Positions 8,093 to 38,016 are shown, counted from the stretch's first letter. The stretch: 64,000 nt of DNA from Clostridia bacterium (GCA_045617125.1 JAZLIA010000034.1:3739-67738), one strand, 5' to 3'. Translations and numbers: made by a program. The notes: generated by a model from the sequence alone, not told the origin.

Positions 8093-9581
8093 ACAGAATT
8101 TCTTCCGGTTCGACTTTCTGAAAAAGCCCGAAAAATGGAAAAGCTTTGGTACTGTACCGGAATTTCTTTCCGATATCAGCGGTTACGGCAATATACCGGC
8201 AATCTGCTTTGGTGAAAGCCTGTCCGTAACCTATTCAGAACTTTGCAGCGATATCTGCGGGATGTGCGGACACTTTGAAAAGATCGGGTTACTCAGATCA
8301 GGCAACGTAGGTTTATGTGCTGAAAACGGATATTATTTTATCGTCGTTTCCCTGGCACTGATGGCTTACGGATGCTGTGCCGTGCTTATACCGCCATCAT
8401 TTAAGGGAAATATACCGGAAACACTTATCAGCAAGTATGACCTTTCGCTGATTTTCGTTAAGGAAGAGGATATACAAAACGCTGAAACCGTTTTTGCCGG
8501 TGACCCCTTACTGCATCGCGGCACGGCTTCAAAAGCTGCCATAAAGGGAGATATTGACCCGGAAAGCCCCGCGTGTATATTCTTTACCGGAGGAACGACG
8601 GGAAAATCCAAGGGAGCCGTTCTTTCACACCGCGCATTGCTTCGCGGAACCGCAAACTGGCAGTACAATATGTTCTCGCTTGAGCATGAGGAGAGCTTTC
8701 TGGCGCTTCCTCTCACTCACGTTTTTGGCTACATCAGAAACTTCCTTGTCAACCTGCTTCTGGGAAATACAGTTCATTTCAGCACCGGGATGCGGAATTT
8801 CTTCAAGGATATGATGCGTATCCATCCGAATGAAACCGTGATGGTGCCAAAGATGGCGGATCTTCTTCTGGATACTATAGAAAGAAACGGAACAGGCGTC
8901 ACCGGCGGAAGGCTGACCACGGTCGTTTCAGGAGCCGCGCACGTACCGGAATTCCTGATCCGCGGTCTTGACCGGTATGGGATCCATGTATATCCGGGAT
9001 ACGGAATGACAGAAACAGCAAATCTGACCAGCGGCAATCCTGTCCCTTTGCAGAAAACGGGATCAGTCGGGCCGCTCTATCCGTATCAGGAGGCTCAGAT
9101 CATGGACGGCGAGCTTCTTCTTAAGGGACAAAATCTTTTCAGCGGATACTATGCAGATCCTGAGCTTAACCGTGAAGCATTCAGCGGAGGCTGGTTCAAA
9201 ACAGGCGACCTTGCCCATTTTGATTCAGACGGTTTTCTATATATCACCGGACGCGTCAAATCGCTGATCGTGCTCCCGACAGGAGAGAAAATATCTCCCG
9301 ATGAAATGGAGATCCGGGTAAGTGAGATCGACGCTGTGCGCGACGCGCTTTTATATCTGAAGGAACAGGAAGGTGTGGGCGGAAAACTGTGTCTTGAAGT
9401 CACACTGCGGCCCGAAATTGTGGAAAAGCTTAACACAGACGGAAAAAATGCAGAAAAATACGTGACCGAAATGATACGCGAGAAGATTTCCGGAATGCCG
9501 GACTGCTTTAACCCGGCTTCGATCGTGATCCGGGACCGGGACTTTGACAGGACCCCCTCCATGAAGATCAAACGTCCGTAA
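8073..9581 (+). CDS. Adenylate-forming enzyme (AMP-dependent synthetase/ligase; acyl- or aminoacyl-carrier-protein ligase candidate)
   Basis: FFTGGTTGKSKGAVLSH (AMP-binding P-loop), GYGMTET, WFKTGDLAHFDSDGFLYITGRVKSLIV and a C-terminal PSMKIKR. ATG at 8073 follows GGAAAGG, so the start overlaps the ACP gene by 20 nt. The ORF-track start at 7974 was rejected. Confidence 0.8.
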   Translation: MKMKGDEQNFFRFDFLKKPEKWKSFGTVPEFLSDISGYGNIPAICFGESLSVTYSELCSDICGMCGHFEKIGLLRSGNVGLCAENGYYFIVVSLALMAYGCCAVLIPPSFKGNIPETLISKYDLSLIFVKEEDIQNAETVFAGDPLLHRGTASKAAIKGDIDPESPACIFFTGGTTGKSKGAVLSHRALLRGTANWQYNMFSLEHEESFLALPLTHVFGYIRNFLVNLLLGNTVHFSTGMRNFFKDMMRIHPNETVMVPKMADLLLDTIERNGTGVTGGRLTTVVSGAAHVPEFLIRGLDRYGIHVYPGYGMTETANLTSGNPVPLQKTGSVGPLYPYQEAQIMDGELLLKGQNLFSGYYADPELNREAFSGGWFKTGDLAHFDSDGFLYITGRVKSLIVLPTGEKISPDEMEIRVSEIDAVRDALLYLKEQEGVGGKLCLEVTLRPEIVEKLNTDGKNAEKYVTEMIREKISGMPDCFNPASIVIRDRDFDRTPSMKIKRP

Positions 9582-9634
9582 AGAGCATGAAGGAAAACTC
9601 ATGAAAAAAGACAGCGCGGGATAAAGGAGCGTCA

Positions 9635-10393
9635 ATGGAAAAAGAAGTGATAAAGGTCGGTGGGCTGGTAAAGTGTTTCCAGCTTGAAAACATGACCCAG
9701 ACCATACTTGATCACATCAATTGTGTGATTTACAGAGGGGATTTTACCGTGATCATGGGTGCCAGCGGAAGCGGCAAATCCACACTCCTTTATGCTCTTT
9801 CCGGAATGGATACGGTAACGGAAGGGCAGGTCATTTTTAACGGAACGGATATTACGAAATTATCCTCCGATGAAATGGCCATGTTCAGAAGAGATCATTG
9901 CGGATTTATTTTTCAGCAAAGATGCCTTATCGGTTCCATGAACGTACTGAACAACGTTCTTGCAGCCGGATTGCTTAAAAAGGCGGATAAAGAAGAGCTT
10001 GTAAAAAGGGCAAAGGAGCTTCTCTGTGCAGTCGGCATAGAAGAACACACCTGGAAAAAATATCCCACCCAGATCTCCGGCGGTAAAGGTGCGAGGGTCG
10101 GGATCGTCCGCGCTCTGATCAATGAGCCGGAGGTGTTGTTTGCCGATGAACCCACAGGGTCTCTTAATTCAAAATCGGGCGAGGATGTGCTGAACCTCTT
10201 TACGGAATTCAATAATAAGGGGCAAAGCATCGTCATGGTAACGCACGATATCAAATCAGCCTTAAGAGGAAACCGTATTCTGTATCTGAAGGACGGAAAA
10301 ATCGTGAATGAATTGTACCTTGGTTCGTATAAAACCGATGACGAATACAGAAAAGAGAAACTGGATCAGTTCCTCAATAAGATGAAATGGTGA
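9635..10393 (+). CDS. ABC transporter ATP-binding protein, MacB/LolD-type, with an atypical signature motif
   Basis: Walker A GASGSGKSTLL, Walker B LFADEPTGSLNS, H-loop MVTHD. The signature reads QISGGKGARVGIVRAL rather than LSGGQQQRVAIARAL. Confidence 0.8.
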   Translation: MEKEVIKVGGLVKCFQLENMTQTILDHINCVIYRGDFTVIMGASGSGKSTLLYALSGMDTVTEGQVIFNGTDITKLSSDEMAMFRRDHCGFIFQQRCLIGSMNVLNNVLAAGLLKKADKEELVKRAKELLCAVGIEEHTWKKYPTQISGGKGARVGIVRALINEPEVLFADEPTGSLNSKSGEDVLNLFTEFNNKGQSIVMVTHDIKSALRGNRILYLKDGKIVNELYLGSYKTDDEYRKEKLDQFLNKMKW

Positions 10394-12741
10394 ATATGCT
10401 GAACAAAACTTTTCTTGTTATCCGGCCTAATATCAGAAAAACATACAGACAGCTGATCGCTGTGTTTTTTCTGGTGCTCATTGCGTCGCTTTTACTGAAT
10501 ATGGTCCTGGTTCTGAAACTGGATTACAATCAGAATTTTGAAAGAGACGCAGCCAGACTGAACGCCAATCATTTCAGGATCGCATATACAGACGTGTATC
10601 TCCGTGACTGCATGGATATGCTTGCTGATTGTCTTAATGAAGATGCAAGAATCAAAGGTTTTGAAATTGACCGCGGATTTATGGGAGAAGGAGACATCGA
10701 ATCTCCAAACGGCTCGATCAGCTCGCTGATCGTACTGGAAAAGTATTCGGATGCGGAAAAGGAACGGATCGACCGATTCGAGATCCTTGAGGAAGATATC
10801 CATATCACAAACGGAGCTTATGTCAGTTATTTTTTCAAAACTCTTGGAATGAAAACAGGAGATAACTGTTCCGTTTCGATAGGAAATAATTCCTTCGAAT
10901 TTCCGATCCGGGGCTTTTACAATAATCCCATGCTCGGAACGGTCAACTGCAGCGGAATCGCCTGTCTGTTAACCGATAAACTGTATGACGAAATTCTAAA
11001 AGATAAGCAGGAATCCTATCTTATCAAAGTACAATGCCGGGACAGGGAGAAGATCACAGAGGTCTTCAACGATACTGTAAATGCATTTGGCAGCCTGAGC
11101 CCCACCGGATATGTATGCCGCACAGCATTTGCAGACGAGGTGGGAGCATCCCGATATACCAATGCCAATCTTTTCAGGATCATACTTACATTTACCTCGG
11201 TCACAATGATCCTGATCACGCTTGCAGTCATAGCGATCGTCATGTCCAACTACGTAAAGGAAAATATCAGGGTTTTTGGAACCTATAAGGCCATCGGCTA
11301 CACATCACTTTCCCTTATTGTTCCCATGCTTTTTGAAGTGGCTCTTTTGTGTCTTGCTGCGAGCCTTATCGGAATCGGTTCATCCTATGCCGTGCTTCCG
11401 CTCATCAATCATGCGCTGGAAAGCCAGTCAGGGGTTCCGTATACGGTCCGCTTCCTTGTTATTCCGTGCATCGTGACCCTCGTGATCTGCGAACTCACGT
11501 CGCAAATAAGCACCTATCTTTCTGTGCGCAAGATCAGAAAGATTTCGACCGTTCATGCGATAAAGGATCCCAGGGAGAGCGCGAAAAAAAAGCCTGACAT
11601 ATTAGCGCTTGAAAAAACGAACCTTCCTGTAAATGCCGCTCTCGGCTTTGACACAGCATTCAAATCCGCATCCCGAAGCATTCTTCTGGTTCTTACATCC
11701 ATGGGGATCACTTTCCTGCTTGGCATATCCCTGTTCATTTATCAAAATCTGATCGTAGATAACACGGATCTTGTAAAGGCGATCTGCGGAGAGATCTCGA
11801 ATTATATCGTAAGTGTTGACACGGAGGATGAAGACAAATTGATCGGCTTCCTTCAGGATGATGACAGGGTCGATCTTTTTTACCTGTATCAGATGGAAGA
11901 CCAGGTCCCGGATGTTTATCCTGTCATCTGCTCCATCGGAGTTGATAAAGATGGATTTGTTTCAAACCTTGACTATCTGATCGTGAAAGGCAGATTCCCG
12001 AATGCCGATGATGAAATAACGTTAAATCAATTATACGCAACCAGAAACGGCCTTCGTCTTCATGACGAGATCATCTTCACCCATGACGGAAAAAGGGATT
12101 CCTACAAGATCGTCGGCTTCAACCAGGGCGCGTCAAGAAACGGAGTGGAAGGATATTTCACAAGAGAAGGCCTTGAAAAAATAAGCAGCAATGAAGGTGT
12201 CACATATTACGTATTCCTTCGCAGCATCGACGAAGAAAGCAGCTTCCGGTCTGATATCATGGAGAAGATCCCGATCCAGTATATGATAAACAGCCGTTTG
12301 AACGTTTCCAGCATAGTCGATATGTATATGCTTATCCTGATCGTTCTGGCGATCGTTCTGTGCATCATCAGCGCATTGATAGCAGGCTTTGTAACCTATA
12401 TCCTCCTCTCGCTCCTGCTCAGCAGTAAAAGACGCGAGCACGGCATATTGAAGGCGATCGGATATACAACAGGAAACATCGTGCTTCAGGCAGAGCTCAG
12501 CATCCTTCCGTTTACGGCTTTGGGAGCAGCGGCGGGACTGGTTCTATCCAGAAAGAACATAGGGATCCTTGTAAGCCGGGCACTCAATTCGATCGGGATC
12601 TATGACTTTGGAAACCCACTGAAGGTTTCCTATCTTATCATCCTCTGGCTGGTTTTGGTGATCCTGATTGCATGCTTCACAGCGTTTTTATGCCGCCCGA
12701 TCTCAAAGATCAGTACACGTGAGCTTTTTAACATGGAATAA
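10387..12741 (+). CDS. FtsX/MacB-family ABC transporter permease (784 aa, two FtsX modules)
   Basis: An N-terminal TM segment followed by a large extracytoplasmic region, in two repeats of that pattern. FtsX-like segments are FGTYKAIGYTSLSL and EHGILKAIGYTTGNIV. The start overlaps the ATPase stop. Confidence 0.75.
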   Translation: MVNMLNKTFLVIRPNIRKTYRQLIAVFFLVLIASLLLNMVLVLKLDYNQNFERDAARLNANHFRIAYTDVYLRDCMDMLADCLNEDARIKGFEIDRGFMGEGDIESPNGSISSLIVLEKYSDAEKERIDRFEILEEDIHITNGAYVSYFFKTLGMKTGDNCSVSIGNNSFEFPIRGFYNNPMLGTVNCSGIACLLTDKLYDEILKDKQESYLIKVQCRDREKITEVFNDTVNAFGSLSPTGYVCRTAFADEVGASRYTNANLFRIILTFTSVTMILITLAVIAIVMSNYVKENIRVFGTYKAIGYTSLSLIVPMLFEVALLCLAASLIGIGSSYAVLPLINHALESQSGVPYTVRFLVIPCIVTLVICELTSQISTYLSVRKIRKISTVHAIKDPRESAKKKPDILALEKTNLPVNAALGFDTAFKSASRSILLVLTSMGITFLLGISLFIYQNLIVDNTDLVKAICGEISNYIVSVDTEDEDKLIGFLQDDDRVDLFYLYQMEDQVPDVYPVICSIGVDKDGFVSNLDYLIVKGRFPNADDEITLNQLYATRNGLRLHDEIIFTHDGKRDSYKIVGFNQGASRNGVEGYFTREGLEKISSNEGVTYYVFLRSIDEESSFRSDIMEKIPIQYMINSRLNVSSIVDMYMLILIVLAIVLCIISALIAGFVTYILLSLLLSSKRREHGILKAIGYTTGNIVLQAELSILPFTALGAAAGLVLSRKNIGILVSRALNSIGIYDFGNPLKVSYLIILWLVLVILIACFTAFLCRPISKISTRELFNME

Positions 12742-33758: not shown

Positions 33759-34181
33759 ATGAGCTCCCGGCTTTTTCATTTGTCGCCCGGTCGGCGACCA
33801 TTTAAGGATACGATTGTGATACAGTATCTCCACACCAAGGAACGGCGACCCATTATCGGTGTTGATTTTGATGACACCCTTTTCAGAAACAGCTACCCCT
33901 GTAATGACGCAGACCCGAACTGGCCGGTCATTCGATATCTGCAGAAACGGAAGTGGGAGGATAATGCTTATCTGATCCTGATCACCTGTCGTTTTCGCCC
34001 TTGGGAAATCGAATTTGCTGCAGAGGCAGCACGCAGGGTCGGCTTGGAATTTGACGCGATCAATGAAAACCTGCCCTTTATGATCGAGAAAGTGGGCGAT
34101 CCCCGGAAGATCTACTGCAATGAGTACATTGATGACAAAAATCTGTCGATCAGAAAAATTGAAAAAATCATGGCGCAGTGA
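33759..34181 (+). CDS. Small HAD-like (nucleotidase/phosphatase-like) hypothetical protein
   Basis: IIGVDFDDTLF is DxDxT-like. The likely true start is GTG at 33816, 7 nt after AAGGA, because the first 19 codons look non-coding. Confidence 0.45.
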   Translation: MSSRLFHLSPGRRPFKDTIVIQYLHTKERRPIIGVDFDDTLFRNSYPCNDADPNWPVIRYLQKRKWEDNAYLILITCRFRPWEIEFAAEAARRVGLEFDAINENLPFMIEKVGDPRKIYCNEYIDDKNLSIRKIEKIMAQ

Positions 34182-34182
34182 G

Positions 34183-34206
34183 TAATACTAAACGAGTTTT
34201 AAAAAC
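34183..34206 (+). repeat. 24-nt fragment of the left arm of the intergenic repeat family
   Basis: TAATACTAAACGAGTTTTAAAAAC matches 59393-59416 at 23 of 24 positions. It begins 2 nt after the stop codon of the 33759 ORF. Confidence 0.7.
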
Positions 34207-34236
34207 GGGATGGACAGGACCGTCCCGTTTTTCCTG
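34197..34236. terminator. Bidirectional rho-independent terminator between convergent genes
   Basis: AAAAACGGGATGG ... CCGTCCCGTTTTT forms a stem of about 9 bp or more, with an A tract on one side and a T tract on the other. Confidence 0.65.
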
Positions 34237-34240
34237 TTTC

Positions 34241-36679
34241 TCAGGTAATGTCGGTCAAGTCAAAACGGGCAGTCTGCTTCAGGGCTCGTATGGATATCAC
34301 GGTCATGATCACCGTCATGCCGACTGCGCCAATAACGGAAGCAAAAGCATTGAAGCCGGTGATGAAGGTCGTAAAATTCGTAATGAAGGTTCTGATCGAC
34401 AGGATGCCCATGGCGTAACCGAGAAAAGCGCTGATGATAACGCCCAGGGCTGCATTGATCACGGTGTCCGTAATGATATATTTTCTGACTGCCTTATCGT
34501 TATATCCGTTCATAAGCAGGATGATCATATCCCGCTTTTTTTCGTTGATATACATTTTCAGCAGATTGTTGCACACAAACACCGCCATAGATATGGAAGC
34601 AAACAGATAGATCAGAACAACCACCTTCATCAGCCGTATGATGATCTGAAAAGCCACATCCGCGTAAGTCATATAATCAAGAACAGAATAGCATTGGCTT
34701 GTTTCCGTCAGCTTTTTTTCGATGGACTGCGCATCAGCTTTGCCGGAATCAAACAGGAGCACGTTATCAGAATATTCCTGCTGTGTCTTTTCCTCATAGA
34801 TCCTTTTGCTGACATAGGTGTTGTATATCAGAGAATAATCCTCATAAATGCAGTCAACAGTCCATTCCGTCCTATGGGTGAAAGAATCGATGATCGTTAC
34901 GCTGTCACCCAGTTGAAGATGCAGATATCTGGCCATTGCGTCCGGAATGGCGATCCCATTTTCCAGATGAGCTGTGGCGCCGCTGTCCGCCGAATAGAAA
35001 TGAACAAAATCGCTGATCCTTTCGTCATCCGTCGCAAACAGCATGATGGAAGTGCTGTAGGATTCCGGCGCCATGTCGGCATTGGTTTTATACAGCATTC
35101 CTCGCATCAGTTGCACACTGAGGCAGGACGGAGATTCCCGGATCTCCTCCGGAGCCTGAGCGGTATGCTCGAAAAAGGCGATCCTGTCATAATTCTGGAT
35201 CTTTGAATACTGCGTTTCCCTGGTTTTGATCGAATTGAACAACAGGGTAAAGGATGAGATGATCAGCATGGTGCAGCTTGCAATGCTAATCACAGTAGCC
35301 AGCACCCTTTTTTTCTCATTGAAGGTGTTGTTGATCACCGCTTTTGAGAAAATAGATATTTCCTTCCAGAACGCCATTTTCTGATAGACTCTCGTTTTTC
35401 CTGTTTCCTCATTGCTGTTTGACAACATCTGAAGGATCTCTTTTTTTACGATCTTCCTGCATGCAAGGACGGTCACGAGACCCAGAAAGCCAAGCTCTGC
35501 AACGATGATCAGCAGAAGATCCGCAAAATCAAACGCAAAGCCGATGCGGGTCACAACAATCAAAGGCGCAACAGAATGTTTGATGATGCTTTCGATGATC
35601 CAGACTCCTACCGGGATTCCCAACAGAATGCCCGGAACAACGGCAAGAACGGTGTAGCTCAGATACCACCGGGTGATCTCGCTTGTTGAAAAGCCAAGCG
35701 CGAGCTTGTTGCCAATGACCGGCGCACTGTCGCTCACCAGCCTGGAAATAGAAAAATAGCAAACGAACAGGCCCACCAGCACAAAGATCAGCGCCATGGT
35801 CCATTTGACCTGAGACAAAATGGAGTGGACGATCCCCAGCACGTTGTATCCGACATCGTTCAATCTTGAAGTAATGACCGGGGTCAGCTTTTCAGGCGCA
35901 TCCATCCCCATGCTTTGCATCAGCGTGCTGATATCCCGATACCGGTCCTCGTTCACCGCTTCAGCACGCAAATGGACCGGATCGAAGCTTTCATGGATGA
36001 TCTGTTTGTATTCTGATTCAAAAACGCTCTTTCCGCCGGTATGATCAAGACGCAGATAATACCCCTGGAAATCCTGTCCGTCAAAAAACGCATCGGACGC
36101 ATATCCGATAAGGTGAACAACCGAGGAATTCTTCCTTGAAAACCCAGGAATAAAATCCGATGTGCCAATATAGGCGCAGGATTCCATGAATCCGCACACG
36201 GTCACCTGCCTGGCCGTTCCATCCTCCATATCAAGGGTGATCTTCTGACCGATGGACAGGCCGTATTTCTTTGCAAAGCTTTTTGCGAGGGCAAGCTCAT
36301 CCCCGTTTTTCGGCAGATCGCCTTCCAGTTCAAAAGGAACATTCATGCTTTTTCCGATGCTGGTCAGACGGATCTGATAGGTATGATCCCCCTGATCAAA
36401 AAAAGCACAGGCTTCATGATAGCCTTCAGCCGCACCAAGCTCTGACAAACGTTCGATTTCCTGCTTGTCAAAACCGTAAGGCATGATGACCCTGTAGTCA
36501 TAAGCCAGATACCGGTCGGAAGTCTCGTTCAGCGTATTGGACATGACAACATCGGTCCCGCCGATGCCGATAAAGAGGAACACAGCGAAAAAAACAAGGA
36601 TGAGCATCGACAGATAGGTCGGCAGCGTTCCTTTGATGCTTCTGAATAATTCCGTTCTCAGCGTTCTTTTCATCGTCAC
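34241..36679 (-). CDS. FtsX/MacB-family ABC transporter permease (812 aa, two FtsX modules)
   Basis: N-terminal TM (YLSMLILVFFAVFLFIGIGG), large extracytoplasmic regions and two four-TM FtsX-like blocks. It starts immediately after the ATPase stop (TGA-GTG). Confidence 0.75.
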   Translation of the reverse strand: MTMKRTLRTELFRSIKGTLPTYLSMLILVFFAVFLFIGIGGTDVVMSNTLNETSDRYLAYDYRVIMPYGFDKQEIERLSELGAAEGYHEACAFFDQGDHTYQIRLTSIGKSMNVPFELEGDLPKNGDELALAKSFAKKYGLSIGQKITLDMEDGTARQVTVCGFMESCAYIGTSDFIPGFSRKNSSVVHLIGYASDAFFDGQDFQGYYLRLDHTGGKSVFESEYKQIIHESFDPVHLRAEAVNEDRYRDISTLMQSMGMDAPEKLTPVITSRLNDVGYNVLGIVHSILSQVKWTMALIFVLVGLFVCYFSISRLVSDSAPVIGNKLALGFSTSEITRWYLSYTVLAVVPGILLGIPVGVWIIESIIKHSVAPLIVVTRIGFAFDFADLLLIIVAELGFLGLVTVLACRKIVKKEILQMLSNSNEETGKTRVYQKMAFWKEISIFSKAVINNTFNEKKRVLATVISIASCTMLIISSFTLLFNSIKTRETQYSKIQNYDRIAFFEHTAQAPEEIRESPSCLSVQLMRGMLYKTNADMAPESYSTSIMLFATDDERISDFVHFYSADSGATAHLENGIAIPDAMARYLHLQLGDSVTIIDSFTHRTEWTVDCIYEDYSLIYNTYVSKRIYEEKTQQEYSDNVLLFDSGKADAQSIEKKLTETSQCYSVLDYMTYADVAFQIIIRLMKVVVLIYLFASISMAVFVCNNLLKMYINEKKRDMIILLMNGYNDKAVRKYIITDTVINAALGVIISAFLGYAMGILSIRTFITNFTTFITGFNAFASVIGAVGMTVIMTVISIRALKQTARFDLTDIT

Positions 36680-37885
36680 TCACCATGCCAGTTCGGAGGC
36701 CCTCAATGGATGATTGTTCACGATCGTCTCATAAACCAGGCCTCCCTTGAAACGGATGACCCGATCGGCCATCTTGGCGATCTCTTCGTTGTGAGTCACC
36801 ATCACGAGCGTGGTTCCATCTCTGACGATATCCTCAAACACAGATAACACTTCAATGCTTGTTTCATAATCCAGCGCCGCCGTAGGCTCATCCGCCAGGA
36901 TCAGCTTCGGTTTTTTCACCAGTGCCCTGGCAATGGAAACGCGCTGCTGCTGACCGCCCGAAAGCTCCGATGGAAAATTGTGCGATTTCTTTTCAAGCCC
37001 GACAAGGCGCAGCGCTTCGGCAGCATTCATCGGATCCCCGACCAGTTCTGCAATGATCTGAATATTTTCCAGCGCATTCAGATTGGCGATCAGATTATAG
37101 GCCTGGAAAATGTAGCCCAGATTTTTACGGCGAAATTCAGCGTACTCATCCTTGGATTTTCCGATGATCTCTTCGTTTTCAAACAAGATACTGCCGGAAT
37201 CGGCACGGATGAGGCCGCCGATGATATTGAGCAGGGTGGATTTTCCGCAGCCGGATTCCCCCAGAAGGCAAAGAAATTCTCCTTTATATACGGACAGGCT
37301 CACCCCTTTGAGCACCTTCGTTTCGATCTCACCATTTTGATATGCTTTTTTGATGTCCCTGCAGCTGAGAAGAATTTCCCTGTTTTTGAGCAGATCGACC
37401 GTGACAGCATGTTCATTGATCTCCATCTCGATCAGGGAAACAAGAATGCTGATCACATCGCTCTCCCGTTCGGTAAATCGGCCCTTTTCCTGATTTTTTA
37501 TCACCTCAATACAGCCGCTGGACTGATCCCTGTTCAGAAAAATCGGAACACATACGGAAGAAGCAGCATCCGGAACGGTTTTCCAATTCTGGAAATCCGG
37601 ATCAGAATCATGGCTTATGACCCGTTTCCCGGTTTGTATGCATCTTCCGACTCCATTATCCTCCGCATTTCTTTCCTCCGCGGACAGATCATATTTTCCA
37701 ATCCAGTAAAAAGGCCTGATCTTGCCCTGACTCTGCAGCCAAACGACCACATCATCGCAGAATTTGCCGTCGATCAACACATGAAGCGCGTTTCTGACAG
37801 CCTCATCGTATTTTTTGCTTTCTGTTATGGCAATATGAACTTTCCCTATTACCTTGAATATCCGGATGTCATCTTGATCGTTCAT
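36680..37885 (-). CDS. ABC transporter ATP-binding protein (MacB-type) with an N-terminal GAF-like domain
   Basis: Residues ~1-165 look like GAF: GVGRCIQTGKRVISHDSDPDF, ASSVCVPIFLNRDQSSGCIEVIKNQEKGRFTERESDVISILVSLIEMEI. The ABC part has GESGCGKSTLLNIIGGL, LSGGQQQRVSIARAL, ILADEPTAALD and MVTHN. Confidence 0.75.
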   Translation of the reverse strand: MNDQDDIRIFKVIGKVHIAITESKKYDEAVRNALHVLIDGKFCDDVVVWLQSQGKIRPFYWIGKYDLSAEERNAEDNGVGRCIQTGKRVISHDSDPDFQNWKTVPDAASSVCVPIFLNRDQSSGCIEVIKNQEKGRFTERESDVISILVSLIEMEINEHAVTVDLLKNREILLSCRDIKKAYQNGEIETKVLKGVSLSVYKGEFLCLLGESGCGKSTLLNIIGGLIRADSGSILFENEEIIGKSKDEYAEFRRKNLGYIFQAYNLIANLNALENIQIIAELVGDPMNAAEALRLVGLEKKSHNFPSELSGGQQQRVSIARALVKKPKLILADEPTAALDYETSIEVLSVFEDIVRDGTTLVMVTHNEEIAKMADRVIRFKGGLVYETIVNNHPLRASELAW

Positions 37886-38016
37886 CTTTTTATTTCTCTT
37901 TCAGAATACATGATGTAAGTCCCAGGGCGATCATAACACAGATCCCATCCAATAACAAGGATGGGATAGAGAGAAAAAATGTCAGAATGTGGCAATACTT
38001 TTCATGATTTGATAAT

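Follow-up and report, generated by a model that had tools for sequence, protein, structure and literature searches.

How is a MacB-type ATP-binding cassette (ABC) machine controlled when the motor subunit itself carries what looks like a sensor domain? This question is raised by a pair of genes at positions 34241-37885 in a 64,000-nucleotide stretch of DNA from a Clostridia bacterium (GCA_045617125.1 JAZLIA010000034.1:3739-67738; the whole stretch is referred to as the window), for which an original prediction, made from the sequence alone, had proposed a GAF domain fused to a MacB-type ATPase and, together with the adjoining double-FtsX permease, a potentially ligand-gated exporter. Our analysis supports three statements of decreasing strength. 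The GAF-ATPase fusion is genuine and conserved. The pair, judged by its anatomy alone, is almost certainly a self-contained two-gene operon encoding a type VII (MacB/FtsX-type) ABC machine. Finally, the GAF domain may gate the ATPase of this machine, a reading which, taken as a whole, we put at a probability of roughly one half.

First, we found that the N-terminal module of the ATPase is a true GAF domain, by hidden Markov model and by fold. The ATPase gene (36680..37885, minus strand) is a single unbroken open reading frame (ORF) of 401 amino acids (aa) plus stop, of which residues 1-160 (37406..37885) make up the GAF domain. Against the Pfam GAF families (PF01590 and PF13185), used at their curated gathering thresholds, the protein scored 39.1 bits for GAF_2 (cut-off 28.6, residues 27-153) and 31.3 bits for GAF (cut-off 22.4, residues 43-156), and the motifs quoted in the original prediction (GVGRCIQTGKRVISHD, SSVCVPIFL, GCIEVIKN and FTERESDVISILVSLIEMEI) are all present in the translation. 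An AlphaFold2 (AF2) model of the module alone (pLDDT 86.6) has its elements in the order H-H-E-E-H-E-E-E-H, which is that of the GAF fold, with long N- and C-terminal helices (residues 3-21, 26-39 and 139-159). When this model was compared with the PDB by Foldseek, the best 50 matches were all GAF domains, at template-modelling (TM) scores of up to 0.72. They include cAMP-bound Lcd1 (5w10), Nlh2 (4g3v), PtsP (3trc), PDE5/6/10 and CyaB2 (1ykd), which share the fold at TM-scores of 0.6-0.72 and an identity of 9-20%, as well as the enzyme fRMsr. Likewise, a family profile of the N-terminal 180 residues retrieved the solved GAF domains of Lcd1 (5w10, E 2.6e-9), Nlh2, PDE5/10/6, PtsP and CyaB2. The region thus scores as GAF and models as no other fold. 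The output domains of the solved GAF proteins are cyclases, phosphodiesterases, kinases or AAA+ activators, and none is known to be an ABC nucleotide-binding domain (NBD).

Second, the module is fused to an NBD of the MacB/LolD type, as had been predicted. This domain (residues 171-388; 36722..37375, minus strand) matches ABC_tran with 126 bits over residues 192-336, and its top NCBIfam models are of the DevA, LolD, DarD and MacB types, all under their equivalog cut-offs. Judged by its motifs, it is a member of the MacB/LolD/FtsE subfamily with intact catalytic motifs: Walker A (GESGCGKST, 209-217), the Q-loop (Q261), the signature (SGGQQQR, 309-315), Walker B (D332-E333), the D-loop and the H-loop (H365) are all present and invariant in the family alignment. 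A PDB profile search of the full-length protein placed 5xu1, MacB (5lj9), MJ0796, YtrE, BceA, LolD and YbbA among its top matches, none of which covers residues 1-170, and Foldseek matched the full-length model to NBDs only, with a TM-score of 0.9 to that of MacB. The AF2 model of the whole ATPase reached a pLDDT of 87.9 and a predicted TM-score (pTM) of 0.83, which, for a two-domain protein, suggests that the GAF domain and the NBD would pack in a defined way. Between the C-terminal helix of the GAF domain and the first strand of the NBD lies a linker (about residues 161-170; 37376..37405, minus strand) where model confidence is lowest (pLDDT 63-75 in the blocks covering 151-170) and the alignment columns are variable. 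The protein ends in a conserved tail (residues 389-401; 36683..36721, minus strand) with the invariant positions N390, P393, A396, L399 and W401, the last residue; no NBD match in the PDB reaches past about profile position 397.

Could this fusion have been produced by an assembly error or a frameshift that joined separate GAF and ABC ATPase genes? The source assembly consists of 149 contigs and is 79% complete, and in one close relative (locus L030) the ATPase ends prematurely, short of residue 191, close to the end of a contig. However, the window gene is one unbroken frame, the model is confident across the junction, and four assemblies, made independently, encode the same 401-aa protein. 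Moreover, searching with the full-length sequence yielded over 100 clusters, of differing source, which share length (about 400 aa) and architecture at 45-57% identity, nearly all with precomputed GAF and ABC_tran annotations. The artefact is therefore effectively refuted, and the GAF-ABC architecture, which can also be seen in precomputed public annotations, is not uncommon among metagenomes. Searches with a single GAF sequence were uninformative because the GAF part is too divergent: a word-based homolog search returned the window's own protein only, and an exhaustive HMMER search gave only 51 representatives, among which fragments and giant multi-GAF proteins were numerous.

The few clusters with source names derive from metagenome-assembled genomes (MAGs) of Clostridia, Lachnospiraceae and Eggerthellaceae. 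Named carrier genome records, which were found through a search with a 7-row GAF sub-alignment and are all MAGs, come from Erysipelotrichaceae, Solobacterium, Dorea, Lachnospiraceae, Oscillospiraceae and Anaerovoracaceae. The Firmicutes in which the design recurs are uncultured inhabitants of gut and rumen. Within a class-level sample of 399 evenly drawn species genomes, three besides the source genome (about 1%) encode a GAF-ABC ORF of roughly 410-427 aa. The module was detected in none of three same-genus relatives (75-89% complete), and a match in one of 15 further same-family genomes is split over two frames, leaving no intact copy among the 18 relatives; the incompleteness of MAGs bars calling the module absent. 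In the split copy (genome G404, contig C45:2044-2593), the GAF region is distributed over open frames of 117 and 136 aa, which suggests either a decaying copy or a sequencing error. Other genomes of the phylum gave weak GAF matches in ORFs of 374-462 aa; these were considered as remote fusions and rejected, as they do not adjoin NBDs.

Third, the GAF domain appears to be maintained rather than decaying. Across the family it is only about 30% identical, compared with about 60% for the NBD, and yet G14, A29, W49, P58, Y60, W61, D66, P114 and G124 are near-invariant, all of them being retained in the window copy; we take the conservation of W49, P58, Y60, W61 and D66 against this low overall identity to mean that the domain is under selection. 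One could imagine that what is selected is an enzymatic activity, since fRMsr structures (3ksf, 3ksg, 1f5m, 3rfb, 3mmh and 4mn7) are among the fold matches at TM-scores of 0.66-0.72. An fRMsr requires conserved catalytic cysteines. Identity to these enzymes is just 11-17%, however, and the cysteines of the window copy, C112 (in VCVP) and C125 (in GCIE), are not invariant, since several members, among them a paralog in the source genome, have A, I, T or F instead. We therefore rejected an fRMsr-type reading, and regard any catalytic GAF fused to the ATPase as highly improbable.

If the GAF domain serves control, systems that lack it should be informative. We identified five GAF-less sister loci, in Clostridium tertium (L028), Streptococcus urinalis (L034), Paenibacillus (L035), Oscillospiraceae (L032) and one further genome (L036), of which L032 and L036 are MAGs; no characterisation of any such system was found. 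They combine an ATPase of 233-235 aa with a double-FtsX permease of 770-1130 aa. Their permeases are 19-24% identical to that of the window, and the C. tertium ATPase is 43% identical to the window NBD. In a phylum-wide sample, a GAF-less, tail-bearing sister was present in four of five genomes checked. The tail itself, N..P....[IL]EW, is found in four of the five GAF-less ATPases (C. tertium, L032, L035 and L036), while that of S. urinalis ends in LEY, and because the sisters share it we assign the tail to the ATPase-permease partnership and not to the GAF domain. A tree built from NBDs only places all 39 GAF-bearing sequences on one side of a branch (support 95/94, length 1.48) and the five GAF-less partners on the other, so that one gain of the GAF domain suffices for this sample. 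Furthermore, a divergent TetR gene (TetR_C_8) adjoins three of the five GAF-less pairs and none of 12 GAF-bearing pairs (hand-computed hypergeometric p ~0.02, for few and non-independent loci). This may reflect a swap between transcriptional and built-in control, which we regard as a lead and not as a result.

These observations can be brought together in the following model, most of which we infer; this applies to the pairing of GAF domains, to gating, to the binding of a ligand and to the kind of substrate that is handled. By analogy with Escherichia coli YbbAP (see below), one permease polypeptide with two FtsX units and two extracytoplasmic domains would be served by two copies of one ATPase, each running from the GAF domain through its long C-terminal helix and the roughly ten-residue linker into the NBD. 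The GAF domain would act as a cytoplasmic regulatory input. Beneath the NBD dimer two such domains would form a pair, and closure of the NBDs, and with it ATP hydrolysis, would be permitted or blocked according to the state of this pair, which either a small ligand or a partner protein might set. Control of the machine would then be post-translational, instead of resting on a TetR-type repressor of the kind encoded beside some GAF-less sisters. We favour this gating model because the GAF domain is conserved under selection, because a helix and linker precede the NBD, because accessory domains on other ABC ATPases provide a precedent, and because of the TetR contrast. Its more specific form, in which the GAF domain is itself a ligand sensor (for c-di-GMP, cAMP or a metabolite) that directly gates the ATPase and stands in for TetR as an allosteric switch, is one that we hold tentatively. 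GAF ligands on record include amino acids, 2-oxoglutarate, haem and others, and the GAF domain of CodY responds to a metabolite; for the window protein a metabolite is as likely as a cyclic nucleotide, and none can be named. GGDEF genes occur in all four of the carrier genomes checked for them. Outside the membrane, the machine more probably extracts or otherwise handles a hydrophobic compound of the envelope than carries out export in the classical sense. Relatives that have been characterised either act on membrane and envelope substrates, by extracting or handling them, or actuate partners. The label "exporter" is unproven, and "ligand-gated" stands as an inference.

Several observations weigh against the gating model. 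The lid between beta3 and beta4 varies in length and sequence across the family alignment, which argues against one common ligand. The likeness to GAF domains that bind cyclic nucleoside monophosphates lies mostly in the C-terminal half and is common to all GAF domains; the NKFDE-type motif of the cyclic nucleotide binders is partly matched (K/N...F..E.D), as read from the alignment. A survey of four carrier genomes, limited to class III cyclases (PF00211), detected such a gene in G185 alone and none in G000, G180 and G330, two of which are 96-100% complete. In addition, the TetR contrast is drawn from 17 loci that were picked by similarity and not at random.

A further point against it comes from the source genome, which encodes a paralog of 406 aa on contig C139 (L003:5908-7128, plus strand) that is 49% identical and belongs to a different subclade. 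No FtsX permease lies beside it; the genes downstream, up to position 11559, encode LPG_synthase_TM, DUF1538, P-II-like and CHAP-domain proteins. Since this synteny is the same in two other assemblies (L026 and L027), the permease-less arrangement is not an accident of assembly, and since a member of the same subclade (P0025) has a permease of 891 aa, the orphan state is derived. GAF-NBD proteins may therefore have roles beyond the gating of an adjoining permease.

The variable lid, in suggesting that no ligand is shared, would also suit a different view of the domain, namely that it is a constitutive structural or dimerisation module which joins the ATPase copies or docks on the permease, carries no signal, and leaves regulation to transcription alone. 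GAF domains often dimerise via their terminal helices, and the helices of the model at residues 3-21, 26-39 and 139-159 would provide for this; moreover, a palindrome over a promoter-like site upstream of the pair (described below) hints at a remotely encoded transcription factor. On the other hand, sister ATPases that lack the GAF domain, and hence any such attachment, work with permeases of the same family, and the conserved aromatic and acidic residues are situated in beta1, beta2 and the following loop, not just in the terminal helices. On balance, we consider a purely structural role rather unlikely.

We next consider whether a signalling gene is conserved beside the pair. An all-against-all ORF comparison across 15 loci showed that only the ATPase and the permease are conserved, and Pfam scans of the immediate neighbours at nine loci revealed no common third gene. 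Wherever the downstream gene is readable, a large FtsX permease lies directly 3' of the ATPase, with the paralog lineage as the exception. At two of the nine loci, which represent distant lineages, a membrane-anchored SpoIIE-type PP2C is encoded directly upstream on the same strand (L019:4392-6185 in Dorea and L025:6463-7971 in Anaerovoracaceae). These two cases speak for the possibility that a signalling protein, such as a PP2C or a partner-switching component, docks on the GAF domain, or that the domain is a target of phosphorylation; the machine would then be wired to a phospho-relay and would not itself sense a metabolite. However, the PP2C is missing from the window and from seven of the nine loci examined, and no third gene is conserved across the 15. 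We regard this wiring as improbable. In a single case (L033), genes for a response-regulator-HD-GYP protein and a FIST-EAL protein (L033:210-2042 and 8224-10349) flank a pair with a short-form permease; HD-GYP and EAL genes are linked to c-di-GMP turnover. The recurrence of signalling genes beside some members, PP2C and HD-GYP/EAL alike, also counts in favour of the gating model.

The permease completes the machine around which the gating model is built. Its gene (34241..36679, minus strand) encodes 812 aa when read from the GTG at 36679, or 810 aa from the ATG at 36673, and two FtsX stretches total 63.6 Pfam bits (cut-off 25.5), the second lying at residues 690-801. A hydropathy scan gives eight hydrophobic segments (4+4) and two extracytoplasmic domains of about 255 and 204 aa. 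The first would extend over approximately residues 42-296 between hydrophobic segments 1 and 2 (35792..36556, minus strand), and the second over approximately residues 482-685 in the second FtsX unit (34625..35236, minus strand). A match to MacB_PCD is weak (17.7 bits against a cut-off of 27, residues 120-174), while some relatives do score, and a PDB sequence search gave no significant match to any solved structure. Most permease relatives are longer (1098-1475 aa), and BLASTP against nine of them aligned in two blocks which skip an insert of 300-650 aa, located near the end of extracytoplasmic domain 1 and, in several, with coiled-coil-like Pfam matches. The window permease represents a short, stalk-less form that it shares with L025, L031 and L033. 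As the GAF domain is kept with both short and long forms, its role is not tied to the insert. The closest short-form relative is L030, with a permease 61% and an NBD 80% identical. We considered L030 as an example of a GAF-less state and found it uninformative, because its ATPase frame breaks before residue 191 at 137 nt from the contig end; these upstream 137 nt (within L030:1-775) are unrelated and AT-rich, and truncation and assembly break are indistinguishable.

How does this machine relate to characterised systems? Full-text literature searches found no published work on a GAF domain fused to an ABC ATPase or an FtsX system, in agreement with the earlier statement that no characterised example is known. 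Type VII ABC systems generally work on substrates of the envelope or membrane, through mechanotransmission (PMC12646458). Among characterised architectures, the nearest is that of YbbAP-TesA from E. coli, a type VII ABC lipid-hydrolase complex (PDB 9GE6-9GE8) in which two ATPase copies sit on one pseudosymmetric fused permease (2:1), YbbP having 10 transmembrane helices with a TM5-6 linker (PMC12646458). Like YbbAP, the window system combines a separate MacB-type ATPase with one polypeptide that carries two FtsX units and two large extracytoplasmic domains, and its NBD matches the fold of YbbA with a TM-score of 0.85-0.89 at 39% identity. Unlike the window ATPase, YbbA has no N-terminal domain. 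We regard the window system as an architectural analogue and not as a member of the YbbAP-TesA group, because a simple hydropathy scan of its permease gives eight hydrophobic segments where YbbP has 10 transmembrane helices, because the permease has no sequence match in the PDB, and because no TesA-like hydrolase adjoins it.

The MacB, LolCDE, FtsEX, HrtBA and YtrEF systems draw on the same NBD subfamily (PDB matches 5xu1, MacB 5lj9, MJ0796, YtrE 9o9x, LolD, FtsE and HrtA) and share the FtsX unit with a large domain between the first and second transmembrane helices. They differ in having separate or homodimeric permeases of four transmembrane helices and no sensor domain on the ATPase, and the partners of MacB, LolCDE and FtsEX (MacA/TolC, LolA and EnvC/PcsB) were not found at the window locus. 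BceAB resembles the window system in its MacB-type ATPase (BceA 7tcg is among the matches), its large FtsX-family permease and its Firmicutes host. In contrast, BceB has one large extracellular domain (between TM7 and TM8) and an adjoining BceRS two-component system, whereas the window permease has two extracytoplasmic domains and neither a kinase nor a response regulator nearby, so that the pair does not qualify as a BceAB-BceRS system. For the proposed mode of control, the nearest precedents are accessory domains that gate ABC ATPases, such as the C2 domain of MetN, the regulatory domains of MalK and ModC and the CBS domains of OpuA and OpuC. In these, too, a cytoplasmic ligand-binding domain on the motor subunit gates ATP hydrolysis, although the domains are C-terminal, are not GAF domains and belong to importers of other ABC types. 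MetNI (3tui) is among the fold matches of the NBD and OpuCA (8s7v) among the PDB profile matches.

Turning to the locus itself, the original prediction that the permease start abuts the ATPase stop (TGA-GTG) is literally correct, the junction reading ...GCA TGG TGA GTG ACG ATG AAA.... In public assemblies, gene callers prefer the ATG two codons further on as the permease start, for a product of 810 aa (P0183, 100% identical), and a Shine-Dalgarno-like GGTGA precedes this ATG; the gap between the two genes is 0-6 nt, depending on the start chosen. The ATPase stop and the permease start, GTG or ATG, share a reading frame (36671-36685). Readthrough of the TGA into a MacB-like NBD-permease fusion was considered and rejected: the frame relation is not kept in homologs and is thus probably chance. 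Upstream of the ATPase gene, a consensus scan gave weak evidence for a promoter-like site (TTGTTA-17-TATGAT with TG, 37930-37958), whose -35 element is overlapped by a perfect 9-bp inverted repeat (ATCCCATCC-N8-GGATGGGAT, 37942-37967). Together, these elements (37930..37967, minus strand) may constitute the pair's own promoter and operator, the repeat being a putative operator for a regulator encoded elsewhere. At the other end, a strong hairpin with a 13-bp stem and flanking A and T runs (34201..34232, strand not assigned) lies between the convergent permease and HAD-like genes and is probably a bidirectional terminator that closes the two-gene unit. A further hairpin lies in intergenic sequence just 3' of the stop codon of the upstream neighbour.

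This upstream neighbour encodes a GH38 alpha-mannosidase, and the downstream one is a convergent 140-aa HAD-like gene; further away are a GH5 enzyme, a LacI regulator and inositol-catabolism genes. Pfam and NCBIfam scans of the window proteins revealed no adjoining kinase, response regulator or other regulator of the pair, as had been predicted. The HAD-like ORF (33759-34181, plus strand) has a weak match to a BT0820-family HAD-type phosphatase model (34 bits against a cut-off of 165). The prediction had also described the pair as sitting alone in a patch of lower G+C. The drop in G+C is genuine and modest, with 0.48 for the pair (0.56-0.60 at third codon positions, GC3) compared with 0.54-0.575 for neighbouring genes (GC3 0.63-0.66) and a window mean of 0.524, whereas standing alone is not unusual, being the rule for the family across 15 loci. 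The HAD-like ORF shares the lower-G+C patch. Taken with the patchy distribution of the module, the lower G+C fits lateral acquisition. An unrelated second ABC/FtsX pair in the window (9635-12741, plus strand) has a G+C of 0.45, below that of the GAF-ABC pair, and consists of a GAF-less ATPase of 252 aa (35% identical over the NBD, and ending in W) and a double-FtsX permease of 784 aa.

Finally, type VII ABC systems such as MacB, LolCDE, FtsEX, BceAB and YbbAP drive envelope processes and antimicrobial resistance, and to our knowledge those whose regulation is understood are controlled by transcription or by partner kinases. If the gating model is true, a conserved sensor on the motor would add a new point of control to the MacB/FtsX superfamily, and the window system would be its first sensor-gated member as well as the first ABC system regulated through a GAF domain. 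ABC ATPases would then join cyclases, phosphodiesterases, kinases and AAA+ activators as outputs of GAF domains. GAF-bearing systems and their GAF-less sisters offer a natural comparison between a built-in switch and a TetR repressor, and the cultured carriers of the GAF-less form, Clostridium tertium and Streptococcus urinalis, provide an entry point to the function of the permease family. Since the GAF-ABC machine is confined to uncultured Firmicutes of the gut and rumen, its substrate may be connected with life in these environments.

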